From an uncultured Chloroflexia bacterium (lineage in GTDB: Bacteria; Chloroflexota; UBA6077; JACCZL01), in NCBI GenBank assembly GCA_963765765.1, contig CAVXYC010000030.1:224001-288000 (forward strand): a stretch of DNA of 64,000 nucleotides, in the 5' to 3' direction. Every line of letters starts with the position of its first letter. The first letter of the stretch is position 1. Positions 59,417 through 60,751 of the stretch are shown in pieces. The position numbers and the translations under genes were made by a program. The notes under the pieces were generated by a model. It made no database searches, had not been told where the DNA came from, and was given only the letters and a program-made list of their open reading frames with translations.

Positions 59417-59443
59417 CTCGTTTGTAGCAACGGTCTTGGAATG

Positions 59444-60406
59444 TCAAGCTGGGGATAACTTGGCAGCATTCCAATCCTGATTGGTGGCAATGAGGTGATT
59501 GAGGATGCGCAGCAGCTTGCCCATGCAGGCGGTGAGCGCCACCTTCGTCGGTTTCCCGGCAGTGCGCAGCCGCTGATAGAACGCGCGCAGCGCGGGGTTG
59601 TGCCGCACGCCGACCAGGGCGCCCATATACAGCGCGGCCCGGACATCGGCCCGCCCGCCCCAGATGCGGCGCCGGCCACGCATGGTCCCACTGTCGCGGC
59701 TATGCGGCGCCAGGCCCACCAGCGCGGTGATCTCTTTGCGGCCCAGTCGGCCCAGCTCCGGCAGGCGTGCCAGGAGGGTGGCCGCGATGGTGGGGCCGAT
59801 GGCCGGCACCGTCCGGAGCCGCTGGGCCTTCCCGTGCCAGACCGGATCCTTGGCCACGCGCTCGGCCAGCTCTTTCTCGATCGCGGCCAGCTCCGCTTCG
59901 AGCCATTCCACGTGACGGGTGATGCCGGGGCGGACCACCGGATCCGCCTGCCGCAGGCGCTGCCGTTCGGCGACCAGCACGTCCCGCAATTGCCGACGTC
60001 GATCCACCAGCGCCTGCAGCGCCTGCGTGGCGGCGTCGAGCGGCGGACGCACCGCGGGCGCGACCGCCTCGGCAAAGTGCGCCAGCACGTGCGCATCGAG
60101 GGCGTCGGTCTTCGCCAGGCGACCGGTCGCGCGCGCGAAATCGCGCACCTGGCGCGGATTCACCACCGCGACGGGCAGTCCGGCCGCGGTGAGTGCCGTG
60201 GCCAGCGGCCGCTCGAGCCCACCGGTAGCTTCGAGCACGATGCGCTCGGGCACCAGCGGTCCCAGGGTGTCCACCAGGGCGGCGCACCCGTCGTCCGTAT
60301 TGGGTACCGACCACCACTGGCCCGACGGACGGAGCGCGACGACCAGCTCCGCTTGGGCGACATCAATCCCCACGACGACTGGGGGTGCGGCGGACTCCGA
60401 GCTCAT
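59444..60406 (-). CDS. IS110 DEDD bridge recombinase (transposase)
   Basis: GIDVA (D), LEATG (E), KTDALDA (D,D), catalytic Ser in SRDSG; GAGGAGG RBS before ATG 60406. Confidence 0.95.
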
Positions 60407-60429
60407 ACCACGCCTCCTCATGGCGACAC

Positions 60430-60670
60430 TGGCAGTCGGCGCGGCGTCCCCAGGCCGGAACTTGCAGATACGGGCTGAGCGCCCCGGCAACAGTACAGGC
60501 TCACGGGACGACGGGCAGAGGTGAGGCCCAGGCTACAAAACGGTCTCACCGGACCGAGTGCGGATCGGACTCTCACCTCCGGCCGACCGCGTTCCAGATG
60601 GGCTCGCTGGCCCCGCGGAGTTATCCCCACCCCGCGACGACGGCGACTTATCCCCATCTTTCACGCTTCG
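60430..60670 (-). ncRNA. Predicted IS110 bridge RNA (ends approximate)
   Basis: Target loop closed by GAGGUGAG/CUCACCUC carries AUCCGCACU and UUUGUAG; donor loop closed by CGUCCC/GGGACG carries ACUGUUGC and UGCAAG. Confidence 0.85.
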
Positions 60671-60683
60671 CGTTCAAGATACA

Positions 60684-60751
60684 AGTGCGGAATTCATTCC
60701 GCCGTCTTTTGACATTGCACGGGACCGCGGAATGAATTCCGCACTACAAAC
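60684..60751. repeat. Family C REP doublet; left unit split by the IS110, right unit intact
   Basis: agtgcggaattcattccgc...gcggaatgaattccgcactacaaac. Confidence 0.9.

Follow-up and report, generated by a model that had tools for sequence, protein, structure and literature searches.

An IS110-group insertion sequence of the IS621 type with a predicted bridge RNA in a GTAG-footed hairpin repeat of an uncultured Chloroflexia bacterium

Insertion sequences of the IS110 group can be mobilised by a recombinase that is guided by a bridge RNA, a kind of system that was first described in 2024. In IS621 from Escherichia coli (Protein Data Bank (PDB) entries 8wt6-8wt9) the bridge RNA is encoded in the left end of the element and consists of a 5' hairpin, a target loop and a donor loop. 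IS621 inserts at a CT core, between CT and AC of a repetitive extragenic palindrome (REP) with a GTAG foot, its wild-type 11-bp target ending in CT-AC, and it has a promoter at the circle junction that is split between right and left ends (Durrant et al., 2024). It was shown that the residues D11, E60, D102, D105 and S241 of the IS621 recombinase form a composite active site, each of them being needed for recombination, and that in each loop the base after the core complement, the handshake base, pairs after strand exchange with position 7 of the other DNA and not with that of its own (Hiraizumi et al., 2024). Bridge RNAs were predicted in 85.7% of the catalogued IS110-group elements, covariation was reported over thousands of RNA-target pairs and some orthologues were found to have longer right target guides (Durrant et al., 2024). 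From Pseudomonas putida, ISPpu9 is a REP-associated member of the IS110 family, and the IS110 element ISPpu10 uses conserved intergenic repeats as targets, with a target-adjacent stem-loop adding specificity (preprint 10.64898/2026.03.19.712850). Here, an element located in a stretch of 64,000 nucleotides of an uncultured Chloroflexia bacterium is described (assembly GCA_963765765.1, contig CAVXYC010000030.1, positions 224,001 to 288,000; called the window). It is very probably an IS110-group insertion sequence of the IS621 type that is mobilised by bridge RNA-guided recombination. As such it is a new example of a known system, the mechanism itself not being new, and its clade may already be listed in the supplementary tables of the 2024 papers.

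In analogy to IS621, the element encodes a two-domain recombinase of similar length that can be aligned end to end and carries the five catalytic residues. It further shares the CT core, the insertion at CT-AC of a GTAG-footed repeat, a candidate promoter split between right and left ends and a left-end RNA with a predicted 5' hairpin, target loop and donor loop that follows the same strand logic of the guides. Its own particulars are other guides and another repeat, a longer left end (277 nt) with an added 5' hairpin region of 78 nt, a right target guide that can possibly pair seven letters instead of four, and a donor-loop handshake base U opposite a target A; a small further difference is that the left donor guide pairs just the first core letter. 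The closest protein match in the structure bank is ISCro4 (9t56), a likeness at the level of the protein alignment. An initial annotation, made from the letters of the window, had proposed an IS621-type bridge RNA layout with a CT core and REP targeting, which agrees with the description by Durrant et al. (2024), and the element coordinates, the CT junctions and the 277-nt left end were all found as it gave them.

The element comprises 1258 bp if a single CT is counted, with CT at both junctions (60684-60685 and 59426-59427). It is devoid of terminal inverted repeats, there is no duplication past the shared core dinucleotide, and CT is present at both junctions in all four copies in the genome. 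A ribosome-binding site (60413-60419) closes the left end ahead of the recombinase gene. With a right end of 18 nt as compared to the left end of 277 nt, the element shows the left-end RNA arrangement of the IS110 group. Recombinase family and guide logic are the same in the IS1111 group, which differs in having its RNA in a right end that is long and in its long subterminal inverted repeats (Durrant et al., 2024, section 12); the subterminal inverted repeat of the window element has 5 bp (59434-59438 with 60675-60679). The features are compiled in Table 1.

Table 1. Features of the insertion sequence and its insertion site, in positions of the window; copies A to D are the four genomic copies, A being the one in the window.
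Feature	Position	Strand	Basis or remark
IS110-group insertion sequence	59426..60683	minus	four genomic copies align CT to CT and diverge beyond
Non-coding left end, 277 nt, predicted to encode the bridge RNA	60407..60683	minus	
Predicted bridge RNA core: target-binding, then donor-binding stem-loop	60442..60581	minus	region of covariance model R1
Extra 5' stem-loop preceding both guide loops	60589..60666	minus	minimum-energy fold
Left target guide including core letters	60557..60565	minus	8/9 to left flank + core (A, B, C); 7/9 (D)
Inner hairpin of target-binding loop, 5-bp stem	60541..60556	minus	4/5 pairs with changes in both partners
Right target guide (60533-60539, possibly 60540) and handshake base (60532)	60532..60540	minus	
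Left donor guide	60487..60494	minus	last right-end letters, one U for C (G-U wobble)
Right donor guide (60461-60466) and donor-loop handshake base (60460, U)	60460..60466	minus	
Recombinase gene, 320 aa, DEDD RuvC-like and Tnp domains	59444..60406	minus	PF01548, PF02371
Candidate -35 box TTGACA, right end, overlapping the stop codon	59442..59447	minus	
-10-like box, left-end positions 3-8	60676..60681	minus	A at position 2, T at position 6
Occupied repeat unit, hairpin and foot up to CT core	60684..60702	minus	last two foot letters at 59424-59425
Mirror repeat unit of the doublet	60727..60747	plus	unoccupied in assembly; full match to both target guides

Both domains of the recombinase were detected beyond the curated cut-offs of Pfam, with E-values of 9.4e-22 for PF01548 and 4.9e-18 for PF02371. 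In the comparison to the PDB the protein aligns full-length with the IS621 recombinase (8wt6, E 7.5e-41), and its best match is ISCro4 (E 2.6e-41, residues 12-319). D15, E59, D101, D104 and S239-G240 align to D11, E60, D102, D105 and S241-G242 of IS621, the residue numbers being counted by hand from this alignment and the printed protein. The full-length alignment and the presence of all catalytic residues bear out the claim of an intact ortholog at the level of the sequence, to which this claim is confined.

The minimum-energy fold of the left end consists of the 5' hairpin region and two stem-closed internal loops, each of them split by a hairpin (5 bp and 4 bp), as had been predicted with hairpins of the CGGUC/GACCG and GGGC/GCCC type. 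The folding energy is no better than that of shuffled sequences (z of -0.01 and -0.98) and is uninformative at this G+C content. As the fold alone therefore proves nothing, a covariance model, R1, was built from this element only, with 140 positions, 36 pairs and the guide segments left unpaired. The model was searched in 80 loci encoding relatives of the recombinase with 44-58% identity from many phyla, and in 61 of these it matches directly upstream of the recombinase gene and on the strand of the gene; two more weak matches elsewhere are apparently spurious. A match was also obtained in eight of 11 further loci from the own and from related genomes, and in the 64-kb window the left end is the sole match (182.7 bits). 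In the window element the R1 match lies 102 nt from the left end, as compared to 15-161 nt in the homologues. The pairs were counted in 47 distinct sequences: 92.5% of the pair cells hold standard pairs vs. 69.2% in shuffles, compensatory changes on both sides are found in 31 of the 36 pairs vs. 25.8 in shuffles, and the covariation score of 0.597 compares to 0.194 in shuffles, none of 500 reaching it, and to 0.03-0.08 with the pairing partners slid by 1-3 columns. The alignment used for these counts was fitted to the model and so favours the structure. Despite this, the predicted two-loop structure is convincing because of the controls with slid partners and the large variety of stem sequences. 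Searches against Rfam gave no match to a bridge-RNA family in the window, the sole notable match being sX15, below threshold and on the opposite strand.

The genome assembly (33 contigs, 91.8% complete, 6.85% contamination) contains four full-length copies of the element with 100, 100, 99, and 95% identity. In an alignment of their flanks the similarity opens just past the left CT and stops at the right CT, which is followed by AC. Three of the four copies (A, B, and C) are inserted at the identical place, between CT and AC of the repeat foot, and copy D resides in an unrelated, look-alike sequence that agrees with the guides at 7/9 positions on the left and 5/7 on the right. Copies A and B are one inserted base apart in 1258 and have identical and intact 320-aa frames, guides and promoter parts. 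In 60 related genomes no copy of at least 95% identity was found, the best match having 74% over 255 bases. The own genome furthermore encodes a second, diverged IS110-group element (locus L005, approximately 1037-2316, contig C33) with 67% DNA identity and its frame in several pieces; it has an R1 match of its own (44.6 bits), and although it is flanked by other sequences, these agree with its loop-1 strings.

The left target guide of the window element is located at loop offset 16, as are the matching guides in the homologues. The right target guide (60533-60539) is the exact reverse complement of the core and five right-flank letters of copy A, and it matches 7/7 letters in copy A, six in copy C, and five each in copies B and D. 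The 7-nt right-target match put forward in the initial annotation thus holds for the window copy, of which it is particular, and not for the other three; its four guide strings and their match counts were all recovered.

In the homologous loci the closest conserved left-end start that precedes the R1 match was used as the left end of the element and the conserved end motif that follows the stop codon as its right end, so that the calling of the ends is independent of loop 1. Loop 1 was then searched for matches, its 5' half with the left flank plus core and its 3' half with the core plus right flank in reverse complement. Pairings of elements with flanks other than their own served as an estimate of chance; among these, at least 8/9 matches were reached on the left in 1.0% and 7/7 on the right in 4.6%. 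On the right, 43 of 61 sites match their own flank at 7/7 letters, as compared to the 4.6% of the non-self pairings, and on the left 29 of 56 sites match at least 7/9 letters of their own flank vs. 9% of the non-self pairings. Summed over 39 distinct elements, the left guide has 251 matches vs. 206.5 +/- 4.9 with permuted flanks and the right guide 255 vs. 183.0 +/- 5.1, the observed sums being reached in 0 of 2000 permutations for either guide. The covariation of guide and target, which the initial annotation had named as a test, is thus present. The matching strings lie at constant loop positions, at offsets 16 and approximately 41-48, as in the window.

In the putative donor loop, the U of the left donor guide still allows a G-U pair to the bottom strand, and contigs from two sequencing runs carry a C at 60492 (A>G on the plus strand), which results in a perfect left donor match. 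Across the clade often only the first core letter is paired by this guide. The right ends ACAACTG (L083, L086), ACAGCCG (L046), ACCATTG (L033, L049), and ACAGTCG (L029, L062) are each found again, with all seven letters, in the 5' half of loop 2 of the respective locus; the putative left donor guide covaries with the right end among the homologues. The right donor guide is complementary to the core and the first four left-end letters with one G-T pair and is the least certain of the guide assignments. It cannot covary because the left end opens with one and the same set of five letters in 47-48 of 48 distinct elements, and no covariation was observed (5.42 matches to the own end vs. 5.40 to others).

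At 51 of 56 sites the handshake base of the donor loop is the complement of target position 7, a number that is reached in 0 of 5000 permutations. Counted by element, 39 of 42 rows are complementary, four rows being the window element's own copies, and complementarity to the own donor position 7 is found in 0 of 42 rows. Most of the pairs are G opposite C; the informative ones are A opposite T (L053, L080, L086) and the U opposite A of the window, and exceptions are L083 (A opposite C) as well as L040 and L048 (G opposite T). The counterpart base in loop 1 is C in all aligned elements and stands opposite a G at donor position 7 in 42 of 42 rows.

The repeat unit occupied by the element has 21 nt and consists of a hairpin with a 7-bp stem and a 2-nt loop and of a foot of 5 nt, which is GTAG in reverse complement. 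At up to four mismatches to the unit 28 units are present in the assembly, two of them exact and three occupied. The 10-nt target core occurs 24 times vs. approximately 15 times expected from the base composition, about half of the occurrences lying in repeat units, and the repeat family appears to be real but small. It shows REP traits, i.e., a short imperfect palindrome, the GTAG end, multiple copies and an inverted doublet at the locus. In this doublet the target in the mirror unit is inverted and lies 45 bp from the left end of the element. At the three of the four insertion sites that were examined for it, the 7-bp hairpin is found and its 3' arm forms the left target; these sites are alike those of ISPpu10 in carrying a target-adjacent hairpin, for which a role in target choice is a candidate here. 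A further REP trait would be a cognate RAYT (Y1 transposase) with repeat units on its flanks. Three matches to PF01797 (Y1 transposase) with 32-40 bits are present in the genome (L092, L093, and L094 on contigs C20, C18, and C23), and these could be IS200-like or REP-associated transposases; judged by the unit coordinates, no unit of the repeat family is near them. Many homologues from other phyla (including L031, L032, L041, L048, and L062) are located in another palindromic repeat with the foot CTCTCCC and then a GC-rich hairpin, and their right target guides match this repeat at 7/7 letters. Repeat targeting appears to be common in the clade. In L012 and L018 from a Dehalococcoidia assembly, short solo fragments beside full copies, upstream of the left end, repeat the target and the first left-end letters; these are possibly scars of earlier insertions or of tandem events.

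The candidate -35 box and the -10-like box are 18 nt apart only once the ends are joined. Of 48 distinct elements, 41-44 have TTGAC at the corresponding place of the right end, the spacing mostly being 17 nt, and in the integrated locus a scan found 0 sigma-70-like sites under its criteria. Only as an excised circle would the element have the boxes arranged as a promoter, and their split fits the circle-junction promoter of IS621. In the proposed cycle, the element would excise as a circle, the joined ends would bring the two boxes together and the left end would be transcribed. The transcript would fold into the 5' hairpin and the two internal loops and would bind the DEDD/Ser recombinase of 320 amino acids. 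Loop 1 would pair with both target strands around the CT core at the foot of the resident hairpin repeat and loop 2 with the joined element ends, and after the first strand exchange one handshake base of each loop would pair with the other DNA. Recombination at CT would finally insert the element with no duplication beyond the core. Of this cycle we infer transcription, RNA binding, circle formation and present-day activity by analogy.

Several observations weigh against a functional bridge RNA system at this locus. Apart from the unexceptional folding energy and the model-fitted alignment, 19 of the 80 homologous loci are without an R1 match, five of these being without upstream DNA. With regard to the guides, the first letter of the left target guide is mismatched at all four sites, the second core letter is mismatched in the left donor guide, and the right donor guide needs the G-T pair. 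Only two of the four copies (A and B) are intact, as copy C has ten differences including a frame-breaking 1-nt deletion and copy D, with 47 differences, lacks an intact frame. Given the contamination of the assembly, the copies on separate contigs could stem from different strains, and single-base insertions and deletions could be assembly errors. Public sequencing data were examined as contigs only (runs X1, X2, X3, and X15), and these contigs, which drop rare forms, contain neither a circle junction nor a precise excision. One contig from an RNA library (metatranscriptome) covers 60090-60536 with 10 differences (approximately 98% likeness), and it does not demonstrate transcription of this element, as it may originate from DNA carry-over or from a relative.

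Some of these observations would also be accounted for if the architecture were as described and the family were now immobile in this genome, a recent relic of which the copies merely persist. Besides the frameshift in copy C, the heavy decay of copy D and the missing circle junctions, the lack of near-identical copies in the 60 related genomes fits such a relic, as does the perfect target in the mirror unit, 45 bp away and unoccupied in the assembly. It is nevertheless rather unlikely, as copies A and B are intact and differ by one inserted base, and as run X1 contains a second junction, to the mirror unit. This junction is given by a contig of 145 letters with a depth of 9.5 that is identical to 60752-60862 on one side and on the other side continues for 34 letters into the right end of the element, in opposite strand, with eight letters shared at the joint. 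Hence, the right end is joined at the CT of the mirror unit, either by a second insertion or by an inversion. X1 may be the source sample of the window itself and is not independent of the assembly.

That this joint reflects an inversion of the segment between the two CT cores by the recombinase, instead of a second insertion, is considered improbable. IS621 is able to flip a DNA segment that is bounded by inverted sites (Durrant et al., 2024, Fig. 5 legend), the mirror unit offers a full inverted target 45 bp from the left end, and the X1 contig fits both events; yet just 34 element-side letters in one contig with a depth of 9.5 are at hand, the other junction was not seen, and X1 may be the sample behind the window assembly. 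Equally doubtful is a further-reaching possibility in which element and inverted doublet would form a natural RNA-guided inversion switch, the right junction recombining with the mirror foot and flipping the element beside the hydrolase gene, and the repeat hairpin gating the choice of the target. Finally, the idea that the left end is a mere leader regulating recombinase expression, that the protein alone picks the repeat foot and that the loop/flank matches are incidental, which would be in line with the folding energy and with the view held before 2024 that IS110 non-coding ends regulate expression (Durrant et al., 2024), can hardly be upheld, since the loop letters change with the flanks at fixed loop positions, the handshake base tracks target position 7 and the RNA of IS621 is necessary, and together with the protein sufficient in vitro (Durrant et al., 2024). 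An RNA-guided IS621-type element is thus the preferred reading, which stood up to the refuting conditions of the initial annotation as far as these can be checked by sequence, and by its sequence it appears to be a well preserved, otherwise ordinary member of its kind.

On the minus strand, the locus starts with a DinB/MDMPI-like gene (60772-61560), followed by the inverted pair of hairpin repeats with the element inside the second repeat, the last two foot letters and a gene for a HAD-type hydrolase (58703-59416). The longest frame of the hydrolase gene opens 10 nt downstream of the right end of the element (59416-59426) and the TTGACA box of the right end faces this gene, so that the element could possibly influence its expression; the true start of the gene is probably a few codons further into this frame. 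Two soil runs of separate studies contain a contig in which 59403 is connected to 60759 through 22 different letters. This allele is without the doublet and without the element, and relative to related strains the doublet itself is therefore an insertion.

The Rfam family sX15 (RF02234) matches the window at 60432-60595 on the plus strand, opposite to the predicted bridge RNA, with 28.3 bits as compared to the threshold of 55. In turn, R1 matches the sX15 locus of the Xanthomonas plasmid pXCV183 opposite to sX15 with 46.4 bits (L100, 1086-1224 on the minus strand, approximately 116385-116523), and downstream of this match a few initial codons of an IS110-type recombinase are present before the sequence becomes unrelated. 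In the original sX15 paper, an antisense partner, asX7, and 10 homologues in Stenotrophomonas were reported, and the available part of that paper makes no link of sX15 to an insertion sequence. The pair sX15/asX7 thus resembles the left end of an IS110-group element that was truncated, and asX7 would be on the strand of the bridge RNA.

The recombinase, guide RNA, donor and target of a bridge system could be read correctly from a single locus of a soil bacterium. For annotation, this means that left ends of this type should be labelled as bridge RNAs, Rfam sX15 appearing to be the opposite strand of one. The clade adds approximately 40 distinct natural pairs of guide and target that share one donor, and it lends natural support to the rule for the handshake base, with U opposite A in the window vs. 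G opposite C in most relatives. If active, the element would provide a compact orthologue of 320 amino acids with a longer right target guide that may be compared with IS621 for specificity.

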